A stretch of DNA of 64,000 bases from a virus (lineage: Duplodnaviria > Caudoviricetes), in IMG/VR virus record IMGVR_UViG_3300007214_000006. One strand, 5' to 3'. Below are positions 1,515 to 63,014 of the stretch, piece after piece. The notes under the pieces were generated by a model, which made no database searches, was not told the origin of the DNA, and worked only from the letters and a program-made list of their open reading frames with translations. The translations under genes and the position numbers were made by a program. Within the stretch, counting starts at the first letter, position 1. Each line of letters starts with the position of its first letter.

Positions 1515-4500
1515 TTAGGCTTGATCAAAAGGATTAATTAGTGGCGCTCCTGCTGTTTGATTTAATGCTGTTAGTTCAGCAAATTTTTCTCTTATAGAAT
1601 CCATAGCAATATCTTGTAGATCTGGTGATAACTTATTCAATGCAGAATCTCCATTAATTATCACATTATGAGTATGTGTTACTGTTATAGTTATTTCCTG
1701 TGGTATAGCACTTAATCCGGCCAAAGTATCGGCTACGCTCTTAAGTCTATTGGTAAATTCACCAATCTTATTAAGAGTATCCGTATCAATAGATGATACA
1801 CCATTTGTAGTTGTTGTGGTCAAACCGCCACCAATAGCAGAGGATGCGTTTTGAAAACCCGTAGTGATAGCGCTTGTAATTTGGCCAAAGATATCACCCA
1901 TAAAAGAAGATAAATTGAAACTGCTATTATTTGCTGACGTTATACCAGCTGTTTCGTAATAGTTGGGGAATATAATCCCGCCGCCTGATAAATATTTTAC
2001 TATTCCTCCCCTGCTATAGTGGCCTTCATTTATAGCTTTTAGAACAGGTAGGTGCTTTTGAGTAGCAGCCCTATTAACTACAAATTCTCCGGGTGTTAGC
2101 ATCGCAGGAACGGTATCTGTGCCTCTTGGTTGATAATTAACTAATGCTCCTTTGCTAGCATAAACTACCCCTCCGTTTGACATGGTTGCTGTTTGTTGAG
2201 CTGCTTCTTCTGCTTTTTTAGTTTGTTCTTCTTTTAGTGCTCCTGTGGCAATAATTATTTGAGCAACTTGGTTTGCGGTAAGGGTGTCTCTTCCGTTTTC
2301 TAAATTTAATAATGGTTTATAAGATTGTGAAAATTCATTCCAGTTTTTACTACCCTCATCAGATTTCATTGCTTTTAAGGATGTTGCCAGAAATTTATAA
2401 TCAAGAGCTTCGACCCAATTATCGGAACGACCCAGCTCGGTATCGTTTGGCTCACCAGTTGCCATTCCAGTATTAACCAACCGATCAAATTGATGGAAAT
2501 ACCATTGTAGGCTTTCTAATCTGTCTATTTTTTCTTCTCTTAATGCATCAGTAGGAATAATAGATTCTCCGTATTTATTTTTTCCTGATGTATAGAATGA
2601 TATTAATTGATCAAATAGATTAGATCTAGTACCTATATCCGGAAAAACTCTTTGAGGATCAAGAGCTAATTCTCTAACCTTATTCCAACTATCAGGGGTA
2701 ACATCTTTTTCTACCTTGGCCTGTCCTGATGCTCCAAAAGCATAACTATCTCCTTTTGCAACTCCTAATGGATTGCCTTTTTCGTCAACCGGCTGTTCAT
2801 ATGCGGTGCTTGTCATACTGCCTGTTTTAATCATAATTTCTCTATTTATAATAGATTGTAATAATTCAGGAGATGCCCCGGTATAATTTTTGTAATATCT
2901 TATAACATTATTTCCTAAAGTGCTTTTTTCTATTAAAGGCTCACTAAATGCATCGTCCGCCATATTCACACCAAGATTTTGTAATAATTTAGCATCTTTA
3001 TTATTATATATCTCGGCAAATGCTGCCCTCCATGCATCTATACTGTGTCTAGCATAACTATCACTAGGAGCATTGGCGGGAATTTTGGAACTTATTGCAA
3101 TAGCTGTGTTTCCTATATCTGCTATAGTAGTAATGTCTTTTTGTAGTGCTTCCTGCACATTTTTGGGTGATGATGTTTTAGCTAATTTATAGAACGCTCT
3201 AGCCAATGTTATTCTTTTAGCATCATTTACTTTGGCTAATTCGTCCATAGAAAAATCAGACTTAACTGCTGAAATTGCTTTTTCTTTTTCTATTTTATCT
3301 AGATTTTTTTGTCTAGCCTCTAAAAATTTAGAAAAATCATATGGAACCTCGGGATGATCTTCATTAGATAATGTAAAAGGCTCGACATTTGGATATGATG
3401 AAGGATCAAGGAATTGGGTTGTTTTGAAATTTGTTTGCTCTCCAGATAAGATCTTAGTAAGGCTGTTATTTAGGTCGGTTGTCCAAATAACGCTGCCTTG
3501 AGGAATAATGCCACCAGCAAAAGGATTAACAGGACTAATATCGGGTGATTGTGGCTCTATAAAAGCGTACCTTGGGCTTATAGGCTCATCAGTGTATCTA
3601 CGTGAACCCATATTGAATTTAAGGCTTGGAGCTAGATATCTGCGATATGTAAATTGAAGACCATCTTTATTATATTCTTCAATTTTACTATTAACGTTTT
3701 TCTTAACTAGTTCAATATTATCTTGGATATTTCCAAAGACAGAATTATAGTCCTCGGGGGTAAAGCCAGCATCTGTCCAAGCGAAAGATTTAATGTTATT
3801 ATTCGCTAGATCTTTCAGCTTAATAAAGTCATCACCAGTTTCTGAAAAATTAAATGACTTTTGAGCTTTTAATGCTGATATTCGACCAGAATAGTCTGAC
3901 CATTTTTTACTGATATTTTCGTTATAAAGAGTTAATGGACTTTGGTATCCCTCTATTGTTTTATTGAACGGGGCGCTTGGGATAGTGTTATTAAATAAAT
4001 TTTGAAAGTTTGATATTCTCTCTTTATTTTTCAAAGACTCTTCTGTTTCTTTAAATGATTTTTTATCTTTTAAAATAGAATGTGTTGTTGTTAAATTTTC
4101 TTGTAAAATAAAAATTTTATTTAAATAATCGCTTAAATAGGACATAGAGTCACCAAGATCATCAGATACTATCTCTGTTGCAAAATTTTGATTTCGTAAT
4201 GGTTTTGCTGCTATTTTTGGCAAATAGTTTCCTCCTCCTATGTATTCGCCTGCATCAAACGTAACGGTATTAGAATTTCCGGCATTAGCTTTAAATAGAT
4301 CATTGACTTCTGATGGCAGCAATAAAGCCCCATCAGAAATATTAGAAGCAGATTGGGTCAGATTTTTAATCACCCATGTAACCTGATTATTTTTTAGTTT
4401 CTCTTCTTTTCCTGGACTTATTGTACCATCTGCATTACGTATTAAGGACGTTTTAGTATTTTTTGTTGAAACAGAAAAGGATGGTGATGCCTGATTTGGT

Positions 4501-7500
4501 TTTATCTTATTAAGATCATAAATTATTTTATTTTTTCTTGCTGTTATTAATTCACCATTATTTTTATCTATAAAAGGTAGCATTTCTGATATTTTATTTG
4601 TTTTTTCTATAATATCATTTAAAATTGCCGATCCTTCTTCTATGCTTAAAGATGTTGTTTGATTTGTAGCATCGTCAATCCATTTTCTAGATGGAAGCTC
4701 AGTGAATTTTCTGGATAATTTATGTTTACTTTGGAACTTTAATGGCACAGAGTTATTGCTTGTTGATTGAATTTCATCAACACCGGTACCGAGCCCCCAA
4801 AATAAAGATTTTCCTGTTATTAATCTGTTTATATTTTTAGGTCTATTTATATCTTTGTTTTCATATAATTCGTCTGATGATAATAAATCTTCTTGAGATC
4901 TTGAGCTTAAAGCATAACCAATATTATCAAAGAAATAAAATTTTTCTTTTGTAATATCATTAGCGTTAATATATTTCCAATTTATATTATCTAATTTTAT
5001 GCTTTTATTAGTCCTACTTGTCTGTTCGTAATCTCTTTCGGCTTTGTCTTCTCTTTCTTTTTCGTCAGCTATATTTGACCATTTCTCATCTACAGCAACG
5101 TATCCTCCATCAGCATAATATTTTACCCTACCTCCACTACTATATCCTCCACTATTAATTTTATTTAATAACGGTAAATGTTTTTGCGTTGCTGATCGAT
5201 TAACCACAAACTCGCCAGGAGTTAACATAGCAGGAACAGTATCTGTGCCTTTTGGCTGAAAATTTACTAATTGTCCAGCAGCAGCGTATATTATACCTCC
5301 TGAGCTGAAACCGTCTGCTCCCATAGCCCCTGGTTTATTTTCAACAACCTGTCTTAACAGTTTAATTTCGTTTACAACATCGTTTAATTGAGCTCCCTCA
5401 AAGGTAAATTTAAATGTACTCATTACTGATGCAAGTTTTGTGGCCGCTGTTTCTTCGGTATTTTTGGCTATGGCTAAATTTAAAAGACCAAGTTCTTTAT
5501 TTGCAAGTGCCTGTAAATCAACTGCTTTTTTATATTCGGCGATTGCTGCTTGCATCTCAGGGTCACCTTCTGGATTTCTTAATGACTGAAGGACCTCTGC
5601 CATCATAGAATTAACGCCAACACCACTCTCCATAAGCATGCTTTCCAAAACATTAGCTTTCATTTCGTTTTGTTTTTCGCCAAGAAATGGTGCTATCATA
5701 TTAAAAGCATCCAAACTTTCTTTTCTCTGTTCTGCACTACTACCAAAGTTAATTCCGCCCTGCATATTATTATTTAATCTGTCCATTGCCCTATTTAGCT
5801 GACTAAATTCTTGAGGACTACTAGTCACCAGCCTTTCGGCCATATTGACACCGGCCTGTCTTTTTTGTTGTATCTCATTAATCTTGGCCATTGCGATACT
5901 GGCCATTTCGGTATTGTCTGCCATGCTCTTTAATGCGTCATAATTTTCTCTAAGAGCAATATTTGTATTTCTTAGCCTGTCTTGCATTAATTTAAATTCG
6001 TCAGCTCCACCAAAACCTCTTTGGCCAGCAGTATTACTCATGCTTTGTTGAGTTGCTCTTCTATCTTCCAATCTTCTAATATTTTGAGCTATAGCTGCCG
6101 GATCAGTTATTCCTCCAGTTTGACTTCTAACTCCAGCAGTAGCAACGTTCATTTGATCTCTCAAAGATATCTCTTTTCCAAGAACTTTATCCAATTCCAT
6201 TTGACCTCTAATTTGTATATCAGAAGCTCTTCTCATTCTAGAATTAGCTTCTACTTGTAAATCAACCATTTGATTCATGCTATTTGCATAATCATTTAAT
6301 CCATTTTGCCAATGTTCTAATGCTTTGAGTGCTGCTTCTTGTGCTCTTCTTGTAGCATCCATAACTTTTCCAAGTTGAGGAACTTTTTCCATTAAATCTC
6401 CAAAATCTATCTTTTCATCACCCTTTTGTCTAATTTGTCCTATAGCTTCATTGACTTGCTTGCTTAGTTTTGCAGATAAATCTGGCGGTATTTTTAGGTC
6501 TTCGAGTGCTTTTGATATATTGCTTTGTATCCTGATTCCAATTTTTTCATTTCCAGCTGTTGGGTCTTCTTTTATCGTTTTGTTAATAGTTGACATTATA
6601 GTATCTTCTATCGCTCCTCCAGCTTGTAATAATCCTTTCATTGTTGCTGATTCTGATCCAAACATATTGGCTGCATTTTGTGCGGCAGATGCTCTCTCGG
6701 TTTTGTTGTAAGCCCTTGGGTTTTGTAACACATTCATGCTTTTTAACGCAACTTGACCAGCTTTTGCATTTCCAGACAAAGCAGATGCTGATAGCTCTGC
6801 TTGTTGACTTAAATTATTTAATTGAAAAACATTACGTCCAATAGCTTGTTCCATATTCTGAAACATTCTTTCTAAGCTATTTTGTAAATGATTTGCTGAT
6901 CTATTTAGCTCTTCCAAAGATTTTTCTTTTAGGATTTTTGTTTGAATTTCTCTAGCTTTTCTTTCACCGTTTGCTGCTATAATACCAGCGATCATTGCTG
7001 ATTTTTGTTCTTTTTGAATATTTGTGCTATTTTCAATATTCATAATCTGTTCTTGTACAGATGCGTCCGCTAAAGCAAGACTTCTAATAAAGGAGTCGAA
7101 CTGGGGTTTATTTTCTGTCTCCAGATCAGATATAGATGTTCCAGATTTAATATTACTAGTTAAAAATTGTTGAGTAGCCTCTGCTGCCCCACGAAAATCA
7201 GCAGCTCTATCTCTTGACTTTTGTGGAATTAATGTAGAATATTGTCTAGATAATCCTATATCTGACGAAGAGTATCCTAAAGAATTTTTATTGGACATTC
7301 CAAACATGTTTGATATCGGATCTTCTAGTGTTTGTATATACGAGCCAACGCCTTTTGAAAATAATACTTCTGATCTTTTATCTACATTTTCTCCATAATC
7401 AAAAAGATTTGCAAATCCTAATTGAGGTTTATTTTTTGCCGTTATAACATTTTCTGTCTGTCCTATGGTCTGCAATACCTGCGTCCTAGCTGTTTCTTTA

Positions 7501-10500
7501 ACGGATCTATCTTTTAAATTTTCAGAAAATTTTTGTAAACTATTATTTGTTATTTCTATTGATGTCTCTAATTTTTTTTGTTCTGACGATATTGCAAATT
7601 CTCTAGCGGCATTTTCAGCATCAATAAAGGCTTTTGTCAATCCTATTACTGCTGTCGTCACCATTGCAACTGGTCCAGCAAATTTGGCGATACCACCCAT
7701 ACCTTGTGTCATCTCACTAACCATAGACCCCATCATCACAGAGCTGCCTATGGCAGTAGTCGCTCCCTGAGTTAGCGATTGTGATCTTGCTTGACTTGCT
7801 GTTTTTGCTTCTCCTCCAGCAAACAAATCGCCTATCATCGGAATAGCCATACTTAGCATAAAAGCTCTATTCATTGCACTATTTTGTCTATCTCCAGATG
7901 ATCCGGCTGCTACTGCTCTTCCTCCTACAAGCCCACCATTGTTTCTTCTTCTATTCGCAGCATTTCCAGCTAAAATAGCTTGTGAACCAGCACCCCCTCT
8001 ACCAAATCCTGCGTCTATCAAAGCTTGTTTTCTTGCTGCTGGGTCTAATGCCCTAAAACTATCACTTTGAGTTAAATCTCTCATAGAAGCCGATGCTCTA
8101 CGACCAGCTGCAACAGGAGCAATTCTGCTATTGGCAGTTGTTTGAGCATTTCTTGCTTGTTCTTGTGAAGAAAATGGCATTACTCCAATATTTTTTAATG
8201 TGTCTGGTAATACATTAGAAACCAAATTTCTAGCCCTTAATCCAGTTGATCTTATTGCTCCTCCTATTCCTCCAAGTCTATTTTGTCTTATTCGTTGAAT
8301 TTCTTCTTGTCTATCTCGTCTCTTATCACTGGAGTATATACTATCATAATAATCTCTACCAGTTTGATTGCCTCCAGCGCGTCTCTTAGGATTATATCTA
8401 CTAGACGGTCCAGAAACATCAGTCATTATTGTTTTCAAGCCTTGCTTATACTGCATAACTGCTGTTTTTTTTGCTTGTGCTATCTCTTTATCTGATTTTA
8501 ATGACATTTTCATTAATTGATTCGTCACCTGAGCATCAGTTAGATTTACTCCATATTGTTTTAGAGCAGCTTGTTTTATTCTCAGTATTCTTTGATCGAT
8601 ATCTATTGTGTCTGTTGCATATTTTTTTTGTATAGCTTGTATTCTATCGTCTCTTTCTTGACGAATGTTTCTTCTTAATGTTCTAGCCTGTGGTGTTGCT
8701 TCTGCAGTTTGCTGTCTTTGTTGCTGTCTCCTTCTAATTCTGGCTCTAATTTTATCTTCTCTTTGTTGAAGAGCATCTGCTTCTCCAGCTCTTATATCAT
8801 ATGTCATACCAGATCTTATATATTGTCCTGGCTCTAATGGTCTAACAGTTGTTCCTCTCGCAAACTTCTGAACAACTCCACCATTATGATATTTATTTAA
8901 TTTATGGAGATTAGAATATCCTATAGCTTGAGCAGAATGTCTGTTAATAACATACTCGCCCTCTTGGGCCATGATGGGTATTTCTCCACCAGCAGCATAT
9001 CTACCTCTAGCTCTTAAATATTTTTTTTGCTCTGTGGTTCTACCTTCATAATCAGAACTTCCTAGTCCTTGTCTTTGTTTCCATGTTGCTATTCTGTCTT
9101 GTTTTTGCATTATGGAGCCCTGTACCTTTTCAAGCAATCCAGCAGGCCCCGTATAAGGTCTTAAAGATTTTGGCAGCTTTTGGCTTTCACTGGGAATTCC
9201 CCAATCAGTATAAAATAAATCGCCTTTTGCGTTTCTTTTTGTAAATTCAGCTATAGCTTCTTCTGGGGTTAATGTTTTACCAGTAACCTCTCTCATTGCT
9301 TTTACAACATCATCTTTTAAATATTTCGATCCTCCATGAGTTATCAATTCTGGTCCTGATTCAGGAGCGCCTCCCTCGCTTAATTTTTGTACGGCTCCAC
9401 CAAAAGCAAAACCTCTAGCTTTAAGATAATTAGTAATATTGCTGGGTATTTTGCCTCTTGGTCCAGTTAAGGTTCTTTTGGCATCAACGGGAATATTAGC
9501 AAGCAAAGAATTATTAAACCAATTTCTTGCTATGGTTGCGCCAAGACCATAAGGAAAGTCAACGCTTCTATGAATCTCAGCTTCTTGTGCCATTGCCCCA
9601 TATAGTTGGGGCGCAGTTTCTTTAAGATAAGAACTAATTTCATTTTGAAATTTAGCCCCCTGGCTATCTGCTATTGCTTTTTTAGAGGCTCTATCTTTAT
9701 CAAATGTTAGTCCATAAGTATATGATTTGATATTTGATGCTTTTGCGGCCATAATATTTTCTGCAGCATCATCAACAAACACACTCGAAGATGACCCGGC
9801 GGCTTCTAATATTGTGTTTGCTTTTGCTACTCCAACAGCCTTATCTGACATACCGCTTCCACCGACACCTCTAACATTACCAGCCGGTATTGGTAAACCC
9901 TTTGAAGCCAACCATGAGGCAATAGCTCCCATTGTATTTTGAGGTCTAGCACTTACAACATACATATTCGACAATAAAGAAGATAACTGATCTGGCATTC
10001 TCTTTCGAGTTTTATTAACCAAACGCACCAGACCAGACATTAATATGCTGGGTTTTGCTTTCTGTAAGCCTCTGGTTACCAAATCAAGATCACCAAAAGC
10101 TGTATAGTCTGGTTTTGTTCCCTTTTTAGCTTTGTATCCTATTGGATCTGTTTTAAGTGCTAGCGTCTTATCAAAATCAAAAAATGCCTTTGTTCCCGAA
10201 CCGCCAGATAAAGCCTCAAGAATACTTTTTGTTAATCTCTCATTATTTCTTTTTCTAACACCAGATAATTCTTCTCTTGTATATTCTTTATCTAATTTAG
10301 ATGCTATTGGAGCATTTTTTATATCTATATAATTAGGATCATTTAGTTGTAACGATTTTAGTCTTGCGGCTCTAGCTGCTTTATTTTTGTCTAATACGGC
10401 ACCAAAGACTCTAACAGTAACTGGTTCTCTTAATCCCGCGCTTAATACTAACTCTTCTGGTGGAAATGGGTTCCCAAACATACCAACAGCACCAAATAGC

Positions 10501-13412
10501 GTACCAATAGATGCTGCCGCTTGAGTAGCTTGTTGGTTTCCTTCTCTATTTTCGCTTGCTTTCTTATTGATTTTTTCTACATATTTTCTAATAACCAAGC
10601 GTTGAGCATTGGCTTCCATAGGATTTGGATTGCGTTTTCTTAATAGTTCATTTGCTGTAAGATCAACACCAGCGGATCTTAATATATCCTCTACGCCCAA
10701 AGCGGTTAATTCTCCAATTATTTTACTAGCTGGCAATTTTTCAGCATCGGATTCCGTAATATCTGCTAATATTTGCCTGGTTTTTCTTCCTGCTCTAGAT
10801 TTTCGTGGTTTTACAAATTCTCCAGCCATTAATTGTTGTCTATAATTGCTTGATATGTTTCTTGTTCTTTTTGGTCGATACAATAAAGATCTTTCGGTTT
10901 TTTCTATTTCTTCTTGAGATCTATATTCTACTGGTTGTCTTGTTTTTTTATTTTTTAATAAACCAGGAGTAGCATCTTCCATAACAATTAGATCACCAAT
11001 ATTAATATTATTTGGGTTTTTATCTAGTGCAGCAGGTCGTGCCTTATCCGCTATTATTTTTTCACTATTAGATCTTTCAAAAAGAACCGATCCTATTACT
11101 TTATCTAGTAAATCACGAGTTGATACTTGAGCATCTTTACTTTTTACTTCGACAGGAGTATTTCCTGAAATGCTAACACCGTCAACTCTAGAAAACTTAT
11201 TGCCTTTTTCTTGTTTATAGTAACCTAGAACATCTAAAATTCTTTCAAAACCTGTTCCTCTAGCTGAACTACCTTTACTACCTGTAGCTCCTCTATTACC
11301 AATATACATTTCTGTGACTTTTGGATTAATAGTTCTTGCTCTCTCAATTTGTTCTTCGGTTAAAACAACTTTTTGTCTTTTAATATTAGCCTCAATAGTA
11401 TCTTTAAGATTAAATCTCAAAGGTGGATTTTCTCTTCTTTTAATAGCTTTTTCTATACTTTCTCCAGATTTTTTATCATATGTGCTATCTATATTTCTAA
11501 CATATGGGGTGCTACTTTTTAATTGTGCTAATCCTCCTTGAGCAAACTTTTTTCTTCCACTAGCTATATCCGCAATATTAGACGGTCCAATAGTTTGTGT
11601 TGCTGCTTTTCTTATAACAAAACTACCTTCTGGTAAAGTAGTATAGAAACTATCACTATTTCCTTGACCAGGAACAATTCCTATTTTGCCTCCAGCAGCT
11701 TTTCTTTGTCTTTTATCGGCATAATTCATTTTTTTTAGAGTCGAAGTCCCAATACGAGCAGCTTCTTCAGGATATATAACTGCTTCTCCTGGCATAAGAG
11801 CAACAGGAACTCCAACACCTCCTCCTGCGGCATACTTTATATATCCCCCTGATTTTGCCCCACCTGGTCTTAATCCTCTCAAAAATCCTGTACCAAATTG
11901 TCTAATACTGCTAGCTCCTCTAAAAGCTGTCATTATAGCAAGTACAGGCAATACACCCTTAACACTATCTGCAACACTAATCAAAGCGCTAGCTAAACTC
12001 AGTGCTCCTTTTGCTAGTGCTTGGAATGTGTCACTACCTCCTATCTCTCTAAATAAAGCTAAAAATTCTTCTCTAACTTTTGCTGCTTGATTAGCCAAAG
12101 AAGCTTGTGCTTTTGCTGCATCAGCAGCTAATGAGCCTTGTCCTTGTTGAGCAACCCTCAAAGCATCTTGAGCTGTTGCGAACTGTTGAATAAGAGGAAT
12201 AACTTTACCGATTTGTCTGAACCCACCAAGCTCTTCTACAATTTCGCTAAATTTCAAATCTCTTGGATCAATACTATTTAACCCTTCACTTAATAATTGA
12301 ACAGCTTTATATGCCCCAACGAATTTACCCTCTGCGTCTGTTAAGTTAACTCCGAATTCTTTTAGAGCCTCAATCGTTCCGCCTCGTTGAATACGAGTAA
12401 AAATTGTTCTTAAGCCCGTAGCAATAGTTTCTGCGCTTTCACGAGTAGTAGCTCTTACGCTTGTAAAAACAGCAATAAACTCATTTAATGCATCTGTACC
12501 TTCACTAACTCCTCTACTAGCGCTAGCAAACACACCACCAGTTCTTTGAATAGCAGCAATAATATCACTAGCTTCAACAGCAAATTTTGCAGAAACCGCG
12601 TTTACTGCGCCAAGAGATTTTTCTAGATCGTTCGCACTAATTCCGAACTGTCTCATCAAAGCGATACTTCCTTCTACCGTCTGATTCATATTATCAAACG
12701 AAGGAGCCAAGCTACTAAGGGCCAAAGCCTTTAAAGCTCGTTCTGTGTCTCTTGCTGTTAAACCAGCTTGCGCTAATGTTAATGAAACATCTGTTAATTC
12801 ATTTGAACTAACACCCAAAGATGTTGATAACCCACTGATTGTTTTAGCTAGTTGTGATAATCCTGACGCTGATTCTCCAGTAACCTGTTGTAATTTAACA
12901 AATTGTCTATCGTATTCTATAAAAGCATCAATGCCTTTTCTGATAGCATTTGTTAATCCCATTATAGTACCAGCAGATAAACTAAATGCTGTAAATCTTC
13001 TTATTGCCAAGCCTGCTGTTCTCCCGAACTCGATCATTTCTGATGATGCGGCTCTCGTTTGTCTCGCGGTATTAGTCATTCCGGTAGCGGTATTATTAGC
13101 AGCTGCTGCTGTATTATTTAAGTTTCTATTTAATGCCGCAGCACCATTTCCAATAGATGATATTGCAGAACCGAACTGTCTAATAGCATTAGCGGCGTTG
13201 TTTGCATTATTAGTTGTGGCAGAAAGGTTGTTGTTCAGGGTTGTTAGCGCTGAATTTAACGAAGTAATATTTCTGGTGGTCGATGGGTTTATTCTGAGAT
13301 TAACATCACCAGTAACTGTACCTAATTGTCTTCTAATATCAGAAACTATATTTCTAACATTAGATGGTCCCCTAAGATTAATCTGCGCAGTTAAATTAAA
13401 TGCTGTTGCCAT
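1515..13412 (-). CDS. Tail tape measure protein (3965 aa) with embedded cargo domains
   Basis: N-terminal TP901-like TMP core (LQQVTGES...LTLAQAGL...VSAKFAVEASDI...ESAETIATGLRTIFTRI), long helical A/Q/K-rich tracts, repeated GTDTVPAMLTPGEFVVN motifs, and position after tail tube and chaperone genes. Confidence 0.93.
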   Translation of the reverse strand: MATAFNLTAQINLRGPSNVRNIVSDIRRQLGTVTGDVNLRINPSTTRNITSLNSALTTLNNNLSATTNNANNAANAIRQFGSAISSIGNGAAALNRNLNNTAAAANNTATGMTNTARQTRAASSEMIEFGRTAGLAIRRFTAFSLSAGTIMGLTNAIRKGIDAFIEYDRQFVKLQQVTGESASGLSQLAKTISGLSTSLGVSSNELTDVSLTLAQAGLTARDTERALKALALSSLAPSFDNMNQTVEGSIALMRQFGISANDLEKSLGAVNAVSAKFAVEASDIIAAIQRTGGVFASASRGVSEGTDALNEFIAVFTSVRATTRESAETIATGLRTIFTRIQRGGTIEALKEFGVNLTDAEGKFVGAYKAVQLLSEGLNSIDPRDLKFSEIVEELGGFRQIGKVIPLIQQFATAQDALRVAQQGQGSLAADAAKAQASLANQAAKVREEFLALFREIGGSDTFQALAKGALSLASALISVADSVKGVLPVLAIMTAFRGASSIRQFGTGFLRGLRPGGAKSGGYIKYAAGGGVGVPVALMPGEAVIYPEEAARIGTSTLKKMNYADKRQRKAAGGKIGIVPGQGNSDSFYTTLPEGSFVIRKAATQTIGPSNIADIASGRKKFAQGGLAQLKSSTPYVRNIDSTYDKKSGESIEKAIKRRENPPLRFNLKDTIEANIKRQKVVLTEEQIERARTINPKVTEMYIGNRGATGSKGSSARGTGFERILDVLGYYKQEKGNKFSRVDGVSISGNTPVEVKSKDAQVSTRDLLDKVIGSVLFERSNSEKIIADKARPAALDKNPNNINIGDLIVMEDATPGLLKNKKTRQPVEYRSQEEIEKTERSLLYRPKRTRNISSNYRQQLMAGEFVKPRKSRAGRKTRQILADITESDAEKLPASKIIGELTALGVEDILRSAGVDLTANELLRKRNPNPMEANAQRLVIRKYVEKINKKASENREGNQQATQAAASIGTLFGAVGMFGNPFPPEELVLSAGLREPVTVRVFGAVLDKNKAARAARLKSLQLNDPNYIDIKNAPIASKLDKEYTREELSGVRKRNNERLTKSILEALSGGSGTKAFFDFDKTLALKTDPIGYKAKKGTKPDYTAFGDLDLVTRGLQKAKPSILMSGLVRLVNKTRKRMPDQLSSLLSNMYVVSARPQNTMGAIASWLASKGLPIPAGNVRGVGGSGMSDKAVGVAKANTILEAAGSSSSVFVDDAAENIMAAKASNIKSYTYGLTFDKDRASKKAIADSQGAKFQNEISSYLKETAPQLYGAMAQEAEIHRSVDFPYGLGATIARNWFNNSLLANIPVDAKRTLTGPRGKIPSNITNYLKARGFAFGGAVQKLSEGGAPESGPELITHGGSKYLKDDVVKAMREVTGKTLTPEEAIAEFTKRNAKGDLFYTDWGIPSESQKLPKSLRPYTGPAGLLEKVQGSIMQKQDRIATWKQRQGLGSSDYEGRTTEQKKYLRARGRYAAGGEIPIMAQEGEYVINRHSAQAIGYSNLHKLNKYHNGGVVQKFARGTTVRPLEPGQYIRSGMTYDIRAGEADALQQREDKIRARIRRRQQQRQQTAEATPQARTLRRNIRQERDDRIQAIQKKYATDTIDIDQRILRIKQAALKQYGVNLTDAQVTNQLMKMSLKSDKEIAQAKKTAVMQYKQGLKTIMTDVSGPSSRYNPKRRAGGNQTGRDYYDSIYSSDKRRDRQEEIQRIRQNRLGGIGGAIRSTGLRARNLVSNVLPDTLKNIGVMPFSSQEQARNAQTTANSRIAPVAAGRRASASMRDLTQSDSFRALDPAARKQALIDAGFGRGGAGSQAILAGNAANRRRNNGGLVGGRAVAAGSSGDRQNSAMNRAFMLSMAIPMIGDLFAGGEAKTASQARSQSLTQGATTAIGSSVMMGSMVSEMTQGMGGIAKFAGPVAMVTTAVIGLTKAFIDAENAAREFAISSEQKKLETSIEITNNSLQKFSENLKDRSVKETARTQVLQTIGQTENVITAKNKPQLGFANLFDYGENVDKRSEVLFSKGVGSYIQTLEDPISNMFGMSNKNSLGYSSSDIGLSRQYSTLIPQKSRDRAADFRGAAEATQQFLTSNIKSGTSISDLETENKPQFDSFIRSLALADASVQEQIMNIENSTNIQKEQKSAMIAGIIAANGERKAREIQTKILKEKSLEELNRSANHLQNSLERMFQNMEQAIGRNVFQLNNLSQQAELSASALSGNAKAGQVALKSMNVLQNPRAYNKTERASAAQNAANMFGSESATMKGLLQAGGAIEDTIMSTINKTIKEDPTAGNEKIGIRIQSNISKALEDLKIPPDLSAKLSKQVNEAIGQIRQKGDEKIDFGDLMEKVPQLGKVMDATRRAQEAALKALEHWQNGLNDYANSMNQMVDLQVEANSRMRRASDIQIRGQMELDKVLGKEISLRDQMNVATAGVRSQTGGITDPAAIAQNIRRLEDRRATQQSMSNTAGQRGFGGADEFKLMQDRLRNTNIALRENYDALKSMADNTEMASIAMAKINEIQQKRQAGVNMAERLVTSSPQEFSQLNRAMDRLNNNMQGGINFGSSAEQRKESLDAFNMIAPFLGEKQNEMKANVLESMLMESGVGVNSMMAEVLQSLRNPEGDPEMQAAIAEYKKAVDLQALANKELGLLNLAIAKNTEETAATKLASVMSTFKFTFEGAQLNDVVNEIKLLRQVVENKPGAMGADGFSSGGIIYAAAGQLVNFQPKGTDTVPAMLTPGEFVVNRSATQKHLPLLNKINSGGYSSGGRVKYYADGGYVAVDEKWSNIADEKEREDKAERDYEQTSRTNKSIKLDNINWKYINANDITKEKFYFFDNIGYALSSRSQEDLLSSDELYENKDINRPKNINRLITGKSLFWGLGTGVDEIQSTSNNSVPLKFQSKHKLSRKFTELPSRKWIDDATNQTTSLSIEEGSAILNDIIEKTNKISEMLPFIDKNNGELITARKNKIIYDLNKIKPNQASPSFSVSTKNTKTSLIRNADGTISPGKEEKLKNNQVTWVIKNLTQSASNISDGALLLPSEVNDLFKANAGNSNTVTFDAGEYIGGGNYLPKIAAKPLRNQNFATEIVSDDLGDSMSYLSDYLNKIFILQENLTTTHSILKDKKSFKETEESLKNKERISNFQNLFNNTIPSAPFNKTIEGYQSPLTLYNENISKKWSDYSGRISALKAQKSFNFSETGDDFIKLKDLANNNIKSFAWTDAGFTPEDYNSVFGNIQDNIELVKKNVNSKIEEYNKDGLQFTYRRYLAPSLKFNMGSRRYTDEPISPRYAFIEPQSPDISPVNPFAGGIIPQGSVIWTTDLNNSLTKILSGEQTNFKTTQFLDPSSYPNVEPFTLSNEDHPEVPYDFSKFLEARQKNLDKIEKEKAISAVKSDFSMDELAKVNDAKRITLARAFYKLAKTSSPKNVQEALQKDITTIADIGNTAIAISSKIPANAPSDSYARHSIDAWRAAFAEIYNNKDAKLLQNLGVNMADDAFSEPLIEKSTLGNNVIRYYKNYTGASPELLQSIINREIMIKTGSMTSTAYEQPVDEKGNPLGVAKGDSYAFGASGQAKVEKDVTPDSWNKVRELALDPQRVFPDIGTRSNLFDQLISFYTSGKNKYGESIIPTDALREEKIDRLESLQWYFHQFDRLVNTGMATGEPNDTELGRSDNWVEALDYKFLATSLKAMKSDEGSKNWNEFSQSYKPLLNLENGRDTLTANQVAQIIIATGALKEEQTKKAEEAAQQTATMSNGGVVYASKGALVNYQPRGTDTVPAMLTPGEFVVNRAATQKHLPVLKAINEGHYSRGGIVKYLSGGGIIFPNYYETAGITSANNSSFNLSSFMGDIFGQITSAITTGFQNASSAIGGGLTTTTTNGVSSIDTDTLNKIGEFTNRLKSVADTLAGLSAIPQEITITVTHTHNVIINGDSALNKLSPDLQDIAMDSIREKFAELTALNQTAGAPLINPFDQA

Positions 13413-13494: not shown

Positions 13495-14361
13495 TTAGCT
13501 AGTAGATTCTGGTTGTGTGACTTCCTGTGAAACTTCTGATTGTGGTATTGTTTCATTTTTTTCTTCGTCCAGAATAATAGGATTCCCATTTTCGTCTAAG
13601 AATGGCTGTTGGTCAACAACATATTCTCCATCTTTGTCTACTCTGTTGCCAAATTTATCAATAAAGTTACCAGCATCATCAATAAATCTACCATTTTCAT
13701 CAACAAGCCTTCCTTCACTATCTATTAATCTTCCCTTTTTATCAATTAGTCTCAATTTATTATCTACAAATTTAAACTTTTTCAAAAATTTATTTTCTGG
13801 TAAATTACTTTCGTAATCATTATCCAAACCATACAGCATATTAGCTAAATTTTGAGCTCCCTGTATAGCAACCTGATCTGTTGATCTATTTAGGTAGTCT
13901 TCAAGACTAGAAAAATATGGCTGTTTAGTATCATTATACACCACACAAACACTGACTAAATAATTAAATCTAGCATTATCTGCTTGTCCTTCAGCACTAT
14001 GATTATCTAAACTTGTTCTAACACTAATTAGATCTCTTATTTCATCTCTTAATTGTTTCATTTTAATGGCTAAATCTTTAGCTTCATTTAAACTAAATCC
14101 TCCTTTAGCTAATCTTTTTTCTCCATCAAGCAATTCTTTTTGCAGACTAGTGAACTTAGCCTGTTTTTCATCGTTCCATAATCCTTGATCTTCTAAAAGA
14201 TCGTCAAGCTTTGCTCTAACAACGCTCTTGCTTTTGATAGCATCAGTAAAGGATTGATTATATACTTTCTGTCCTTCTCTCTGATCATTTAAAGAGGGGC
14301 TGCGAACTAAGAACTCTTTTTCTACATTATCAACCGTAACCTTGAAAGTTTTTGTTTTCAT
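13495..14361 (-). CDS. Putative tail assembly chaperone with C-terminal 7-aa DxxG repeats
   Basis: Immediately upstream of the TMP. Tandem IDKKGRL/IDSEGRL/VDENGRF/IDDAGNF/IDKFGNR/VDKDGEY. N-terminal half resembles 14665..15720. Confidence 0.6.
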   Translation of the reverse strand: MKTKTFKVTVDNVEKEFLVRSPSLNDQREGQKVYNQSFTDAIKSKSVVRAKLDDLLEDQGLWNDEKQAKFTSLQKELLDGEKRLAKGGFSLNEAKDLAIKMKQLRDEIRDLISVRTSLDNHSAEGQADNARFNYLVSVCVVYNDTKQPYFSSLEDYLNRSTDQVAIQGAQNLANMLYGLDNDYESNLPENKFLKKFKFVDNKLRLIDKKGRLIDSEGRLVDENGRFIDDAGNFIDKFGNRVDKDGEYVVDQQPFLDENGNPIILDEEKNETIPQSEVSQEVTQPESTS

Positions 14362-14687
14362 GACTGATTATCTCCTTTTGTATCGTTATCAAAACGAATT
14401 TCATAATTATATTTGTGACTGTTATTTTTTTCATTAATAAAATATTTATACATATTTTCTATAGCCGATCTAGTTTGATGGTTACCAAAATTTAATATAT
14501 CATGTCTAGCCTTTTGCCATAAATCATGATAATAATCTCCTAATTCATCCTCTTTTTCCCAGAGTTTTCCAAATGTTTCTTCGAATCTGGCTAAAGCGCC
14601 GATCATAATTGTTGTGCATTTTTTTTCTGTATCTTTGATTAGTTTATTTTGTTTATGATTCATATTATTTCTTTCTACTAGCAGCAT
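14358..14687 (-). CDS. Hypothetical protein in the tail operon (likely start 14663, MNHKQ)
   Basis: ORF track; ATGA-type overlap with the downstream gene. Confidence 0.6.
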   Translation of the reverse strand: MLLVERNNMNHKQNKLIKDTEKKCTTIMIGALARFEETFGKLWEKEDELGDYYHDLWQKARHDILNFGNHQTRSAIENMYKYFINEKNNSHKYNYEIRFDNDTKGDNQS

Positions 14688-24795: not shown

Positions 24796-27700
24796 TTAAC
24801 CATAATTTTGAGAAAAACTACCATACCAATAAGAGCCATCACTAATAAAACTATATATATCTACTTTGCTAGCTAATATGGTGGCCGTTGGCGTGGCGCT
24901 ATCTGCCCACCTTACTCCACTAAAACTTGCAGTATAATTACCACTTCCGGTATTAAGAAACATTGTGAAACTCTTGCCGGCCGTTGTTGCTGGCATGGTA
25001 AAAGTGCAATTGCCCGTTAGTGTACAAGTATGCACAGTGCCACTAACTAAGCTTAATGTTTTGCTAGTGCCACTATTACCATTAGACACAACGCTTTCTG
25101 TGAAACTATCAAAAGTAAGATTTCCATCAATATTAACATCTCCAACCACATCAAGCTTGACTGATGGAGTGCTTGTTCCTATTCCAACACTGCCAACATA
25201 ATTAATACACATTCGTTCACTGATGTTATTAGCTAGACCCGTAAAAAAACGTAATTTGCCAGCATCATAACTGCTAGAATCTGTTCCGGCCGCTATAGCG
25301 GCTAATTCTCCAACATCATCATATTTATTATGAAATTTTAATACCACCCCACTCTCATTTGCATCATATATTTCTTTATAAAAATCAAAATCATGATCTG
25401 CTTTAATTTTTAAAGCTAAACTATTAGCGGTGAAAAATTCTATTGGAACAGAACTAATGTTACCTATTTGTAATTTAGCAACGTTAGAACCTTGTGTTAC
25501 AATCATGGCGCATCCGGCATCACTTGTATTACCACCATAATAACCATGCTGATACCCTGTGCCGTGAACGAAAAACTGCATCACATTATTTTCCCAGGCA
25601 TTAGAACTATTATTGCTTAGTGTGAACGAGCCCCTAGATGCTGCGTTAGTAACATTAAAATGAGCTAAATTAATATAGTCTGAGGATGTTGCATCGTTGA
25701 TCTGAAAAGGTTGGGACTGTGCAGCGCCTAATATTGTTCCTCCGGCACCGCCAGCAGAAATTGCTAGTTTAGCATTTGGGGCATTAGTGCCTATGCCGAT
25801 ACGGTCCGCACTAGCATCAAGAAAGAATAAATTACTATCGGTATCTCCTTCTATTCTAAAATCATTATTTGCTCCATCCTCATTGAACACGGCTGATCCT
25901 CTGATATCCAGAGTTGTTCCCGGAGAACTTGTTCCTATTCCCAGTCTATTATTTGTCGCATCCCAATATAATTGGCCGCTATCAGCAACTATTCCGCTAG
26001 CACTGTTCCAATATGCTATATGATTCGCAACACCGGTTCCGATAACAGGATTAACAATACTACTATTAATTGTAATAGTACCACTACCATTAGTTATGCT
26101 AATACCAGTACCAGCAGTGAGTGTATTAGCAGCTAAACTGGTGCCACTACCAATTAATAATTGGCCGTTACTATAAGTAGACCTATTTGTTCCTCCCTTG
26201 GCTACAGATAATACTCCAGTAATTTGAGAAGTATTAATATCGGAGAGTCTCGCTAAAGTGCCGCTGTCGGCTGGTAACTTAACAATAATATCATAACCAG
26301 GAGCATCTGACATTAATGTTGTAGAATATCCGACACCATTACTATCATTAACATCAAACTTTAGAATATCTCCATTGAACCCTGGGTCTATATTTCCTCT
26401 ATCTATTTGAAAACCAAATCCACCAGCCCCTATACTAAATCTAGCTGGTCCGCCAACATTTATACCATTAAAATTACCAGTATTACATACTAAATCATTT
26501 ATTCTCAAATTTCCATAAGTGCCAGGAGTATATATACCGCTGCTATTACTAGCTACTCCGCTACTCAACATTACGAATTGAGAAGCGCTAGTGTCCCAGC
26601 CCATAAATGCAGTTAAGGCCGTGCCTCTTATTAGTGCTAATCCTCTATCCAAAGTGTCTGTGGTTACTATATTACCACTAGCTAATCCTAGTGTGATAAT
26701 AGGATCCTCAATCTCCATGCGATCCACATTGGCAGTCACTACTGATCCATTAACTGTTAGGTTGCCACCAACAACCAAGTCACCAGAAAAATTACCACTA
26801 TTACTAGTTAACAATCCGCTAACACTTAATCCACTACTAAAAATACCATTACCTACAACGTGTAATTGGGAAGCTGGAAATTGTGTATTTATTCCTAATC
26901 TATTATTTGAACCAGTAGGAGTTATATATATAAAATCATTAATACTATTGATTTGAATATTAAAAACTTCTTGTCTTGTATAAGAAAATCCACCAGCACC
27001 ACCCTGGGTCCAACTGTTGAATTTAACTTTCCAATATCTATCTGATGGAATATGATTCATTATTAATTCTGAATCAACTATAAGATTACCAATATTACCT
27101 TCTCCCCATAAAGTATATAAATTATGATATGTTCTTGATTGAACATTGGTTAAATTATCCCATCCATCATTATTCCACACTGTGCCAGAAGGAGAAAAAA
27201 TGTAGCTCCAGCTATTTTCTTTAGCCAAATTATATATTGCTCCACCGGATCCTCTTGTAATAATTAATTCATTTGGTATTATTACATCATAATTATTAGA
27301 ATATGTATTATCTGGATGAGTATAACTAATTATAGGAGCAGAAAGATCGTCTTGTTTGCTATTTAGTTGAGTTTGCACATTGACAGCGTTAATACTTAAT
27401 GAAGTAAAATTTCCACTACTAGTTGGTACCCATAATCCACTAGCAGTATTGTATTGCAGGAACTGACCGTTAGTGACACCAGTAACAGCCACATCGTGTA
27501 ATTCTTCCAACTCGTATCCATTTTGAATTCTTACCTCAATAACGCCATCGGTTTGGTGTGTTCTTGTAATTGTGCCAATAGTCACAATATGACTAGGAGC
27601 ATATGGTTTTATACTCGTTAATCCTCCAGAAACTGTGGGACTCAAATACAAAACAGTACCATTAACATTGCCTTGAGGAGCAGATGGATTAAACTGATCT

Positions 27701-28203
27701 GTATTTAGACCACTTAATGCTCCAAAGACTATAACTTTACCTTCTTGGTTTATTCCAATGGTCTCATAAGTTAGTCCATAAGTTCCGGCACTACTAGCAT
27801 CTGTTGTTGCTATTGCTTTTTGTATTGTTGGTCTGTCTCCATGACCGCCATTGATATAAACGGCGGTCATCTTATTTATGGATGCTCCTGTGTTATTAAA
27901 AACTGTGGTTATCAAAGATTGAGCATGCTCAACAGATCCCGTAACAGATATAGTGGCAGATGAGCCATTAGAACCTAGTCCTATGGTAATATTATTTCCA
28001 GCTAATAGTCCTGTTGGATGTATAGCCGTATAATACAAATTATTCCAGCCAGATCCGTTTATTCCTATTTTTAATTTTCCGGTATCTGTTTCGTATCCTG
28101 GTTCACCGGTTGCTAATACAGAATTAGAATTTGTCCATTCTGTGGAAGTACCTTTTCTAAATTGTATATTATTATATCTTGGCATCTGCTTCCCATGATT
28201 CAA
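24796..28203 (-). CDS. Long tail fibre with an Mtd_N/hyaluronidase-type N-terminus (likely start 28185, MPRYN)
   Basis: IQFRKGTSTEW...LATGEPGYETDTGKLKIG; repeated NRLGIGT/RIGIGT/SVGIGT fibre motifs; C-terminal TCTLTGNCTF...KVDIYSFISDG module. Confidence 0.8.
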   Translation of the reverse strand: MNHGKQMPRYNNIQFRKGTSTEWTNSNSVLATGEPGYETDTGKLKIGINGSGWNNLYYTAIHPTGLLAGNNITIGLGSNGSSATISVTGSVEHAQSLITTVFNNTGASINKMTAVYINGGHGDRPTIQKAIATTDASSAGTYGLTYETIGINQEGKVIVFGALSGLNTDQFNPSAPQGNVNGTVLYLSPTVSGGLTSIKPYAPSHIVTIGTITRTHQTDGVIEVRIQNGYELEELHDVAVTGVTNGQFLQYNTASGLWVPTSSGNFTSLSINAVNVQTQLNSKQDDLSAPIISYTHPDNTYSNNYDVIIPNELIITRGSGGAIYNLAKENSWSYIFSPSGTVWNNDGWDNLTNVQSRTYHNLYTLWGEGNIGNLIVDSELIMNHIPSDRYWKVKFNSWTQGGAGGFSYTRQEVFNIQINSINDFIYITPTGSNNRLGINTQFPASQLHVVGNGIFSSGLSVSGLLTSNSGNFSGDLVVGGNLTVNGSVVTANVDRMEIEDPIITLGLASGNIVTTDTLDRGLALIRGTALTAFMGWDTSASQFVMLSSGVASNSSGIYTPGTYGNLRINDLVCNTGNFNGINVGGPARFSIGAGGFGFQIDRGNIDPGFNGDILKFDVNDSNGVGYSTTLMSDAPGYDIIVKLPADSGTLARLSDINTSQITGVLSVAKGGTNRSTYSNGQLLIGSGTSLAANTLTAGTGISITNGSGTITINSSIVNPVIGTGVANHIAYWNSASGIVADSGQLYWDATNNRLGIGTSSPGTTLDIRGSAVFNEDGANNDFRIEGDTDSNLFFLDASADRIGIGTNAPNAKLAISAGGAGGTILGAAQSQPFQINDATSSDYINLAHFNVTNAASRGSFTLSNNSSNAWENNVMQFFVHGTGYQHGYYGGNTSDAGCAMIVTQGSNVAKLQIGNISSVPIEFFTANSLALKIKADHDFDFYKEIYDANESGVVLKFHNKYDDVGELAAIAAGTDSSSYDAGKLRFFTGLANNISERMCINYVGSVGIGTSTPSVKLDVVGDVNIDGNLTFDSFTESVVSNGNSGTSKTLSLVSGTVHTCTLTGNCTFTMPATTAGKSFTMFLNTGSGNYTASFSGVRWADSATPTATILASKVDIYSFISDGSYWYGSFSQNYG

Positions 28204-45577: not shown

Positions 45578-47278
45578 TTATGGTATCAAATCAATAATTA
45601 GTCCTAATGAATAACAACATACTGCTGGGGGTGGCGTATGGGATGGAGTGGGGGTGCAAGTGGGAGTGTGGGTGGGAGTATAAGATGGAGTAATTGAAAT
45701 AGTAGGAGTTAGAGTAGGAGTAATAGTAGTAGTAGGCGTAATAGTAGGAGTAGGCGTAGGAGAAGCACCAATAGTTTTTGATGGCGTGGGTGTCGGAGTC
45801 TGAGTTTTTGTTGTAGTAGTCGTAGGCGTTGGAGTACTTGTTTCACTAATAGTAGGAGTCTGCGTGCTGGTTGGGGTTTTAGTAGGGGTTGTGGTGGGAG
45901 TTGGAGTAGCAGATGGGTTTGGATTTGGGGTTGGCAAATTGGGTATCAAATTATTGCACATACTACCACCAGCACTAAATAAATACGTATCATGATCGTT
46001 ATATGCATCAAGTATTAAAAGAAAATTGTCTGATGCTTCGAATATATATGGAACAGCTTCAGATCCACTGAATCTATTTTTAGGTCCTGATAGTGGTATC
46101 CAACCACTAACATAATCTGTTCCTGGAATAGTAACGAAATTAACTAATTCACTACTATTTAGTAGTATACCATTAACTTTGATGCTAGCTAATGCATTAT
46201 TCTTGATAGCAATTAGAGCATAATATTGTGGACCATCATAATTCATCCGATAAGGAAGTGGAGGAAGTGCTATCGTATATCTTTTTGATAATCTATTAAA
46301 TGGAAAAATAGCATTTATTGATGGATCACCAAGGCAAGCACGCCCTGGGAGGTCTGGTCCACAACCTCTTTTTATTTGATACACAAATATAGGGTATCTT
46401 GCTTTGATGATAGTTGGACTAGTTACAGATAATTTTTCATAACTTTGATATTGTTGTAATGTTACTGATTGATCATTGATAGAAATTATATTATTATTGT
46501 CTACAGATAAAATCTTAAAAGCATCTCCAAGATCACCATTAATACGATTTTGTACATTATTATAATTTTGTGTTAATGGTAAAATAAAAGTTGTATCAAA
46601 ATATTTATATCCATATATTTGACAAATTTGAGGATTACATGCTCCTCCTACCCAAGCATAACACTCGGTGTCTAAAAAAACAGCTATTTTTTCTTTACTT
46701 TCTATCTTAAGTGCCTTATCGAAGCCGCTAGGATATTTAATTTTTACCGCTTGTAAATTTTGTAATGTATATTCTAGAACAGTGTTGCCAGTAACTTTAA
46801 TTGTATTATTATTTGAAGTACTAATTATATTCACATAATTAGCCCACGGTCTGCCAGCTGAAGGAAATGGACATATATAATATAATCTAGATAATTGTTC
46901 TATGGGTAATAATGGTGTTCCATTAGAAGCCGCTTCCATACGCAATAAATAATGACATGTAATAGCTTTATTTGATATTATTTTTATGCCCCTATAACTT
47001 GGTACATGTTCTTGAGAAAAATACATACTAAGATATTGATTGTTAGGCAATTTATAAAAACCTATATTATTAGAGTTTATAATTGCTGTGTAAGCTTCTC
47101 CAAAATATTCAATAGACACCACTGTTCCTGGTTCTCCAAGAAAGTATATATAATTTTCAAAAAGATGGTAGAACGCAGGCAAATCAACCAAATAGTGACC
47201 TGGAAAAGCAAAATAAAATTCTTTACTTAAACAAGTGTCTGTCTGTGATTGTGCTTGTATGTTATTTGAAATATCCAT
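45578..47278 (-). CDS. IgGFc-binding (FCGBP N-terminal)-like domain protein with a long PT linker
   Basis: ALKIESKEKIAVF, FKILSVDNNNIISIN...PTIIKARYPIFVYQ...GDPSINAIFPFNRLSKRYTI...ASIKVNG; ends CCYSLGLIIDLIP. Confidence 0.65.
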   Translation of the reverse strand: MDISNNIQAQSQTDTCLSKEFYFAFPGHYLVDLPAFYHLFENYIYFLGEPGTVVSIEYFGEAYTAIINSNNIGFYKLPNNQYLSMYFSQEHVPSYRGIKIISNKAITCHYLLRMEAASNGTPLLPIEQLSRLYYICPFPSAGRPWANYVNIISTSNNNTIKVTGNTVLEYTLQNLQAVKIKYPSGFDKALKIESKEKIAVFLDTECYAWVGGACNPQICQIYGYKYFDTTFILPLTQNYNNVQNRINGDLGDAFKILSVDNNNIISINDQSVTLQQYQSYEKLSVTSPTIIKARYPIFVYQIKRGCGPDLPGRACLGDPSINAIFPFNRLSKRYTIALPPLPYRMNYDGPQYYALIAIKNNALASIKVNGILLNSSELVNFVTIPGTDYVSGWIPLSGPKNRFSGSEAVPYIFEASDNFLLILDAYNDHDTYLFSAGGSMCNNLIPNLPTPNPNPSATPTPTTTPTKTPTSTQTPTISETSTPTPTTTTTKTQTPTPTPSKTIGASPTPTPTITPTTTITPTLTPTISITPSYTPTHTPTCTPTPSHTPPPAVCCYSLGLIIDLIP

Positions 47279-62009: not shown

Positions 62010-62060
62010 CTCTGAATCTTTTCTCGGTTAGACTTACCCTAAACCCCAAAGGATAGCATC

Positions 62061-62267: not shown

Positions 62268-62304
62268 AATAAATATTCCGGCATAGCGTTTGCTGGGCAA
62301 GATC

Positions 62305-62540: not shown

Positions 62541-62542
62541 AA

Positions 62543-62779: not shown

Positions 62780-62790
62780 AAAGAAAAAAA

Positions 62791-62991: not shown

Positions 62992-63014
62992 CCCCCCATT
63001 AGGGGTACGAGCTT

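Follow-up and report, generated by a model that had tools for sequence, protein, structure and literature searches.

Tape measure proteins (TMPs) of tailed phages are known as rulers and as DNA conduits, sometimes with a wall-degrading insert. They occupy the lumen of the tail, exit from it before the DNA does, and in some cases carry enzymes used at entry, as in TM4 gp17, T5 pb2, and SPbeta YomI, in each of which an enzyme domain is embedded in the TMP. The TMP of Thermus phage P74-26 is several thousand residues long. A pre-made enzyme can also be delivered with the genome by another route, as is T4 Alt, which travels in the head but not in the tail ruler. Several effector modules on one chain, with repeated processing sites, occur in MARTX toxins, which have a protease domain of their own. 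Here we describe P0001, a TMP encoded in a 64,000-nucleotide stretch of DNA (the window) from a Caudoviricetes virus (IMG/VR record IMGVR_UViG_3300007214_000006). P0001 belongs to a family of giant TMPs in which a repeated motif is the junction where modules are inserted, lost, or replaced, and in which the commonest enzyme module is a phosphatase of the HAD superfamily. Whereas the inserts of TM4 gp17, T5 pb2, and YomI act on the cell wall, P0001 carries this phosphatase and a domain resembling PD-(D/E)xK nucleases. An enzyme embedded in a TMP is thus already known; what is new here is the plan with multiple motif copies, the extent of the family, and enzyme inserts that are non-lytic.

Three of the described TMPs bear directly on P0001. 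During tail assembly, lambda gpH is cut in its glycine-rich region, at about residues 690-710, to yield gpH* (~1-710) and gpHC (PMC12617516); the exact cut site and the protease are not known, and residues ~690-817 of gpHC are unresolved in the structure of that 2025 study (PMC12617516). T5 pb2 is cut after R1127, which separates its muralytic part (PMC10038345). In TM4, deletion of the 114-amino acid mt3 insert shortened the tail by ~20 nm, as expected from the length of the insert (PMC1796659).

P0001 is a single open reading frame (ORF) of 3965 amino acids on the minus strand of the window (1515-13412). It encloses the whole interval (1978-11840) in which the original prediction had placed a TMP built as a string of cargo domains separated by a repeated motif. 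That the protein is a TMP, of the TP901 or PhageMin_Tail type, is borne out by profile matches. PF10145 (PhageMin_Tail) matches residues 190-384 (E 1e-21, 78 bits against a cutoff of 33), and TMP PHROGs 4211, 167, 28, and 4704 match the N-terminal part (E 2e-24), with the phrog_28 alignment extending to residue 1980. In addition, the gene order around the TMP in the closest relative, on a 158-kb contig, is the same as in the window. Pfam scans of the whole protein and of nine pieces of it, at E up to 10, gave nothing beyond PhageMin_Tail, and the enzyme domains described below escape Pfam. The parts of the protein are as follows, the clusters being those of the family comparison below:

1515-13412, minus strand: whole TMP gene P0001 (single ORF; PF10145; TMP PHROGs; more than 870 homologues; syntenic tail module in a relative)
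12261-12845, minus strand: PhageMin_Tail domain, residues 190-384 (Pfam), within the conserved N-terminal core (residues 1-517)
11685-11861, minus strand: motif M1, residues 518-576, degenerate (49 bits), at this position in all relatives
11523-11696, minus strand: motif M2, residues 573-630, degenerate (39 bits); homology to relatives falls just after it (coverage drop, residues 600-650)
8841-8999, minus strand: motif M3, residues 1472-1524 (62 bits)
5316-8840, minus strand: segment B, residues 1525-2699, conserved (composition; cluster 1 in 120 of 120 relatives)
5094-5315, minus strand: motif M4, residues 2700-2773, full form (115 bits)
2190-5093, minus strand: segment C, residues 2774-3741 (cluster 2 in 113 of 120 relatives, 870-1090 amino acids)
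1971-2189, minus strand: motif M5, residues 3742-3814, full form (108 bits), the final copy
1515-1970, minus strand: C-terminal tail, residues 3815-3965, conserved (cluster 3 in 104 of 120 relatives)

The motif has the form YAxGG ... G(T/S)D(T/S)VPAMLTPGEFVV ... L..IN ... GG. A profile built iteratively from the two best copies detected exactly five copies in P0001, at 39-115 bits, as compared with a best score of 3.2 bits in 200 shuffles of the protein; all five agree in position with the intervals at which the motif had originally been noticed. M4 and M5 are 66% identical in protein and 62% identical in DNA sequence, their longest common nucleotide run is 12, and different codons are used at 27 of 49 identical residues. 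Such synonymous divergence indicates that the copies are maintained by selection at the protein level and do not stem from recent duplication. The (F/Y)AxGG boxes that had been reported between the motifs are present, but are mostly the glycine-rich flanks of the motif itself. The sole box apart from the motif copies, FAFGG at residues 1335-1339, scores 0.8 bits, which is not significant. A single motif copy had no meaningful match in the PDB, the 73-copy profile described below alone succeeding, and the Pfam lambda C-terminal model did not match single copies. The idea that the motif forms a homotrimeric clasp was addressed by complex prediction with three copies; the score was 0.03 with a chain pLDDT of ~35, which counts neither way. 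A LysM-like reading is unsupported, as intimin LysM was only the fourth PDB match (E 0.58) and Pfam LysM did not match.

The search with the whole protein yielded more than 870 metagenomic homologues of 3000-6800 amino acids, nearly all of them with PF10145 alone, and a separate search found family members of up to 7872 amino acids. We retrieved 120 relatives, cut them at the motifs, and clustered the pieces, which gave 89 clusters. Every one of the 120 has between 4 and 10 motif copies, in a fixed order. The plan begins with the core (cluster 0, 120 of 120), M1 and M2, a bay of highly variable length (bay A, 164-2566 amino acids), and M3. Segment B (~900-1540 amino acids), M4, segment C, and M5 come next, and these are followed by 0 to 5 extra variable modules, each closed by a motif, and then by the tail. 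The conserved parts are interspersed with variable sequence in two bays, bay A and the extra modules. The first copy always follows the PhageMin_Tail core, while the final copy lies 100-280 amino acids from the C terminus. P0001 is the minimal, five-motif form of this plan. Its C-terminal tail is presumed to be the hub-binding end, because the TMPs of Douge, lambda, and T5 have resolved C-terminal ends.

Comparison among relatives shows that whole motif-bounded modules have been gained, lost, or replaced. P0050 differs from P0051 by one extra 264-amino acid module, and P0017 from P0024 by one extra module, and in both cases the ends of the module lie within motif copies. P0018 and P0019 share 95% identity until their M5 copy and have different modules thereafter. 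P0009 and P0011 match at 93% identity as far as the end of M2 (residue 646), beyond which there is no long match until the final motif copy. For a count across all pairs, we defined breakpoints as distinct internal ends of matches of at least 70% identity and at least 200 amino acids, and the motif zone as the motif ± 15 amino acids. The motif zone contained 358 of 802 breakpoints against 88 expected (45-48% against 11% across thresholds), an enrichment that is partly built in, since the motif lies, by construction, where conserved segments give way to variable ones; even so, a junction would be expected to give such an enrichment. The similarity of P0001 to its relatives has the same pattern: it is 56% up to M2 (the mean identity of the core, residues 1-517, across ~138 relatives is likewise 56%), falls just after, and peaks again at M4 and M5. 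The motif is therefore a junction for module exchange in this family, and the predicted role of the motif as module boundary and exchange point holds.

Not every motif-bounded segment is exchanged. Segment B (1175 amino acids, between M3 and M4) is rich in helix formers and poor in aromatic residues, has a hydrophobic glycine-rich stretch near residues 1860-1960, and looks like an ordinary helix-rich TMP body. Segment C (~970 amino acids, between M4 and M5) is fixed in place and in length, although most relatives are only 13-18% identical over it; its last ~250 amino acids are well conserved. By composition it looks non-helical and globular. No match to segment C was found in Pfam, in a PDB profile search, or in an ESM Atlas feature search. 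Segment C is a fixed part of the family plan, and not swappable cargo. The proposed string of cargo domains thus applies to bay A, whose modules do vary, but not to segments B and C. Similarly, the proposal that the motifs bracket non-helical, enzyme-bearing segments agrees with the region between M2 and M3, and probably, as to non-helical character, with that between M4 and M5, but not with the helix-rich region between M3 and M4.

Bay A of P0001 lies between M2 and M3. Searched iteratively within the family, residues 617-1470 resolve into four units, D1 to D4, that occur independently of each other; among the 120 relatives, taken without bias, D1 is found in 10, D2 in 42, D3 in 71, and D4 in 18. 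The units are:

10878-11564, minus strand: D1, residues 617-845, PD-(D/E)xK-like (conserved residues, model, weak fold matches; 10 of 120 relatives, 8%)
10233-10877, minus strand: D2, residues 846-1060, long helices and a three-stranded sheet, directly upstream of D3 (model pLDDT ~95)
9393-10232, minus strand: D3, residues 1061-1340, HAD core (~1071-1280) with a helical C-terminal extension (fold, catalytic residues)
9000-9392, minus strand: D4, residues 1341-1471 (1336-1470 in the family searches), a small module after the lone FAFGG box (18 of 120 relatives)

A search with the whole of bay A against 1.84 billion representatives gave 61 matches, nearly all in other giant TMPs and a few in small stand-alone proteins. 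For such small proteins homologous to D1 and D3, the only Pfam matches were to DUF2608 and lay below threshold. At the border of D1 and D2, an LMAGEFV stretch (residues 868-880, ~10773-10811) resembles a remnant of the motif core, to which the profile gives no score, and in the consensus of relatives D2 opens with a glycine box.

D3 is a HAD phosphatase. It is the commonest enzyme module of the family, present in 59% of relatives, and D2 lies directly N-terminal of it in the 50-odd relatives checked for adjacency. The model of D2-D3 has a pLDDT of 90.8. Nearly all of the top 50 PDB matches found by Foldseek belong to the HAD superfamily, with AphA as the best (E 1.4e-4, probability 1.00) and with phosphoserine phosphatase and the phosphatase of T4 Pnkp among the others. 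By VIA-align, the T4 Pnkp 3'-phosphatase ranks first (Z 12.4, rmsd 3.1, 131 of 142 residues), followed by class C and class B acid phosphatases and Pnkp1 (Z 10.8-11.7); the best 50 listed all have the HAD fold. FCP1-homology, PNKP, and RNA-repair HAD families also appear among the AFDB clusters matched. A sequence profile of D3 matched almost only HAD-superfamily phosphatases in the PDB, at marginal E values (best 0.016), AphA again being the best. D2 and the helical stretch after the HAD core matched no known fold, and all fold matches cover the HAD part alone.

The four HAD motifs occur in order in D3 (DxDx(T/V), which includes T1083, followed by S/T, K, and DD) and are near-invariant in 68 sequences. 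D1079, D1081, (S/T)AR1156, K1197, D1214, and D1215 are invariant in these sequences, which are otherwise ~30% identical, and both aspartate motifs are kept in 82 of 88 copies of D3. The catalytic residues are thus kept by selection, and with this conservation and the modeled fold, D3 is probably active. Compared with T4 Pnkp and the class B and C acid phosphatases (the DDDD group of the HAD superfamily), D3 has the same fold (VIA Z 12.4 for Pnkp, 11.0-11.6 for class C, and 10.8 for AphA) and the same four catalytic motifs. Unlike T4 Pnkp, D3 has no kinase domain, is embedded in a structural virion protein behind the 215-amino acid D2, and has marginal sequence similarity. No kinase domain or P-loop family was detected by Pfam anywhere in P0001, and the likeness to Pnkp is limited to the phosphatase half. 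By tblastn, the D2-D3 module had no match in a deposited phage genome.

The best structural match of D3 and its nuclease-like neighbor point to nucleic-acid ends as the target, while its acid-phosphatase relatives point to the envelope. A different account of the enzymes follows from the latter: the HAD domain would be acid-phosphatase-like and would dephosphorylate envelope or periplasmic substrates and thereby aid passage of the tail tip or DNA conduit, and so would correspond to the peptidoglycan hydrolases inserted in other TMPs. Within 1-1.6 Z of the top match lie acid phosphatases of classes B and C and a plant vegetative storage protein; AphA is best both by Foldseek and by sequence profile; and every TMP insert characterized so far acts on the wall. 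Nevertheless, no structure matches better than the T4 Pnkp 3'-phosphatase; Pnkp1 and PNKP-type AFDB clusters appear as well, and the neighboring D1 is nuclease-like. A further point concerns relative P0086. Residues ~1156-1370 of this TMP, in the same bay, match PF03496 above the cutoff (E 1.9e-9) and form an ADP-ribosyltransferase exoenzyme domain, an enzyme class whose known phage members act in the cytoplasm. We regard an action of these enzymes on the envelope as somewhat unlikely.

D1 is likely to be a distant PD-(D/E)xK domain, as judged from its conserved residues and its model. In 18 sequences, E723 is near-invariant, D744 and E755 are invariant, and position 757 is lysine (arginine in two). 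The model (pLDDT 78) has the element order α-β-β-β-α-β. With VIA, 31 PDB chains reached a Z of at least 2, with a maximum of 3.6, and most of these are PD-(D/E)xK-fold nucleases, among them the VRR-NUC domain of FAN1, CdiA-CT, Hjc, type II restriction enzymes, and viral cap-snatching endonucleases. Foldseek against the PDB and AFDB, at E values of at least 0.04, likewise returned many restriction endonucleases and Mrr or toxin REase domains. D1 may accordingly have nuclease activity. A second candidate PD-(D/E)xK stretch, at residues ~1240-1335, is not supported: in the confident model (model residues 396-487) it consists of helices and one strand, and it had no nuclease matches. The payload of nuclease plus phosphatase that had been proposed for this TMP is therefore sound in its phosphatase part, with a confident HAD domain and invariant catalytic residues, and has weak but mutually consistent fold matches in D1 on its nuclease side.

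The same conserved residues bear on whether the inserts do anything catalytic at all. They might instead be ruler length or inert filler, former enzymes with no catalytic role in infection. The shortening of the TM4 tail by an amount matching the 114-amino acid insert (PMC1796659) would fit this, as would the steady length of segment C (870-1090 amino acids) despite its drift to 13-18% identity. Filler, however, would not keep fixed catalytic residues such as those invariant in the 68 otherwise ~30% identical HAD sequences and the acidic residues invariant in the 18 sequences of D1. Moreover, the range of bay A lengths among relatives indicates that the length of the bay is not constrained. 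We consider inert filler very improbable.

Pfam scans of 78 representative variable modules of relatives gave only EF-hands, one SHD1, and one LYR-like match. In the papers searched, no TMP with a nuclease, HAD, or ADP-ribosyltransferase insert turned up; a report on a large lineage of aquatic phages was set aside, as it deals with different phages, in which no TMP has been identified.

The motif extends well beyond the giant family. By tblastn with one motif copy, 182 deposited phage records were found, mostly annotated TMPs, from phages of Gordonia, Mycobacterium, Nodularia, Ralstonia, Burkholderia, and others. A profile of 73 copies against the PDB sequence set matched mycobacteriophage Douge gp16 twice (residues 962-1028 and 1411-1473; E 3e-13), lambda gpH at residues 750-785 (E 4e-5), and, weakly, the JBD30 TMP. 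In lambda gpH the full element spans residues ~731-785 (FATGG ... PAGIVHRGEFVF ... YATGG) and directly follows the hydrophobic glycine-rich stretch. In TM4 gp17, residues 704-766 match the motif (E 3.5e-10) and lie directly before the peptidoglycan-hydrolase insert mt3, which includes W853. Judged by sequence, the motif is an ancient TMP element common to lambda gpH, TM4 gp17, and Douge gp16, and is not special to P0001. Its sequence is known from well-studied TMPs, and we came across no account that treats it as a repeated boundary of modules. The profile detects no copy in T5 pb2. By eye, residues 1127-1150 of pb2 have a loose likeness to it (AEGG and then GE...VV after the R1127 cut), in a stretch that overlaps a reported metallopeptidase signature.

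P0001 resembles lambda gpH in that gpH has the same motif with both glycine boxes, behind a hydrophobic glycine-rich stretch and near its C-terminal hub-binding end. The difference is that gpH has one copy in 853 amino acids and no known enzymatic activity, whereas P0001 has five copies and its relatives up to ten, separating long modules. The 3310-amino acid TMP of Nodularia phage vB_NspS-kac68v161 has two tandem motif copies near residues 903-1017, but no Pfam domains were found in it and it has no string of 4-10 motif-bounded modules. In the 2157-amino acid TMP of Gordonia phage Sidious, clear motif copies occur at residues 967-1029, 1649-1696, and 1978-2037, along with one weak copy. The giant family is thus not alone in using several copies of the motif. 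Between the copies of Sidious, Pfam detected no domains.

The explanation we favor, and consider reasonably probable as a whole, is that P0001 is a modular TMP with exchange at the motif, that its enzymes are delivered to the host, and that the motif regions are the likeliest sites of processing. Since TMPs leave the tail ahead of the DNA, the domains of bay A would most likely enter the host with the TMP as infection starts, reaching the envelope or the cytoplasm before phage gene expression. The ADP-ribosyltransferase in bay A of P0086 is in keeping with an effector role. By analogy with lambda and T5, the chain may be processed into separate pieces at the motif regions. The support for cleavage from these two phages is circumstantial, and because the lambda cut site and protease are not known, the link between motif and cleavage in lambda is one of position only.

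A tentative but real competitor to this favored explanation is that the motif is an assembly element and not a cut site. It would serve to dock tail assembly chaperones, the tube lumen, or the hub, or would act as a clasp that sets the register of the chains; the TMP would stay one chain, and exchange would occur at the motif only because it is conserved enough to tolerate joins. That phages far removed from each other conserve the motif in protein sequence is what would be expected for contact with conserved tail parts, and the constant placement of the first copy after the PhageMin_Tail core and of the last 100-280 amino acids from the C-terminal end agrees with such a role. Furthermore, TMP cleavage is documented for lambda and T5 only. 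The occurrence of 4-10 copies within one family, on the other hand, fits a fixed partner poorly, the motif region is absent from the Douge map, as is the N-terminal part of lambda gpHC from its structure, and the estimated lambda cut is ~20-40 residues from the motif. As to the motif by itself, a processing site and a docking element are about equally plausible.

The favored explanation might also be taken further. P0001 would then be a virion-borne polyprotein in which each motif is a processing site, and processing would release a channel-forming body and interchangeable early-acting enzymes, with which a lineage could be re-equipped by motif swaps; the same motif would underlie the cut of lambda gpH to gpH*. 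The released pieces would include the phosphatase, the nuclease, the ADP-ribosyltransferase, and dozens of uncharacterized modules, set free at tail assembly or at ejection. We think this extension unlikely. Unlike in MARTX toxins, no protease domain was found in P0001 by Pfam scans.

Several observations weigh against the favored explanation, in addition to the built-in component of the breakpoint enrichment and the weakness of the D1 fold matches (Z at most 3.6; Foldseek E at least 0.04). Segments B and C are bounded by motifs and yet are not swapped, and D1 to D4 come and go with no full motifs between them, which means that the motif is not the sole junction. By itself the motif is predicted to be disordered. 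Only residues 1658-1699 of Douge gp16 are resolved in the map, and since the motif regions are outside these, no structural role of the motif is seen there. The TM4 deletion indicates that inserts may also count as ruler length. Lastly, several kinds of substrate are conceivable for D3, given that FCP1-type HADs have proteins as substrates and that acid phosphatases of classes B and C work outside the cytoplasm.

The source of P0001 is read as a huge, uncultivated, long-tailed phage. An identical protein is recorded on four contigs, the longest of 222 kb. The gene order at the locus is ORFs of 351, 109, and 288 amino acids, the TMP, and then a fiber-like gene of 1967 amino acids. PHROGs and Pfam searches on 30 neighboring genes gave almost nothing, and no neighbor of the TMP matches a PHROG or Pfam tail family; the tail module thus reads as siphovirus-like from gene sizes and order alone. 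Since the tube-sized gene has no sheath-sized neighbor, a non-contractile tail is probable.

Other features of the window are these. The ORFs of 109 and 288 amino acids (13495-14687, minus strand) overlap by 4 nucleotides and occupy the position expected for tail assembly chaperones just upstream of the TMP. Neither matches any PHROG, and a pair of 100 and 288 amino acids is kept at the same place in a relative. An ORF of 1135 amino acids (24796-28203, minus strand) opens with a Major tropism determinant N-terminal domain (PF18454, E 3e-12) and may, from this match, be a receptor-binding fiber of the kind diversified by diversity-generating retroelements. A 566-amino acid ORF with an IgGFc-binding-protein domain (PF17517, E 3e-23; 45578-47278, minus strand) sits within a long run of same-strand ORFs with no family matches. 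The G+C content rises to 0.48 at 62001-64000, as compared with 0.28-0.39 in the remaining window.

The family of huge-phage TMPs reported here, very large and not described before, thus appears to use the ruler as a carrier for many modules. The commonest of these is an intact phosphatase, and none of its type was found in a deposited phage TMP. Related TMPs of 3000-7800 amino acids that differ by whole globular inserts raise the question of how such a ruler sets tail length. The motif also makes the question of lambda gpH cleavage testable, as it adjoins the cut region and can be mutated in lambda, TM4, or T5. If the domains are delivered, phages would be able to bring in ready-made effectors against host signaling, defenses, or nucleic acids by way of the tail as well as by proteins packaged in the head.

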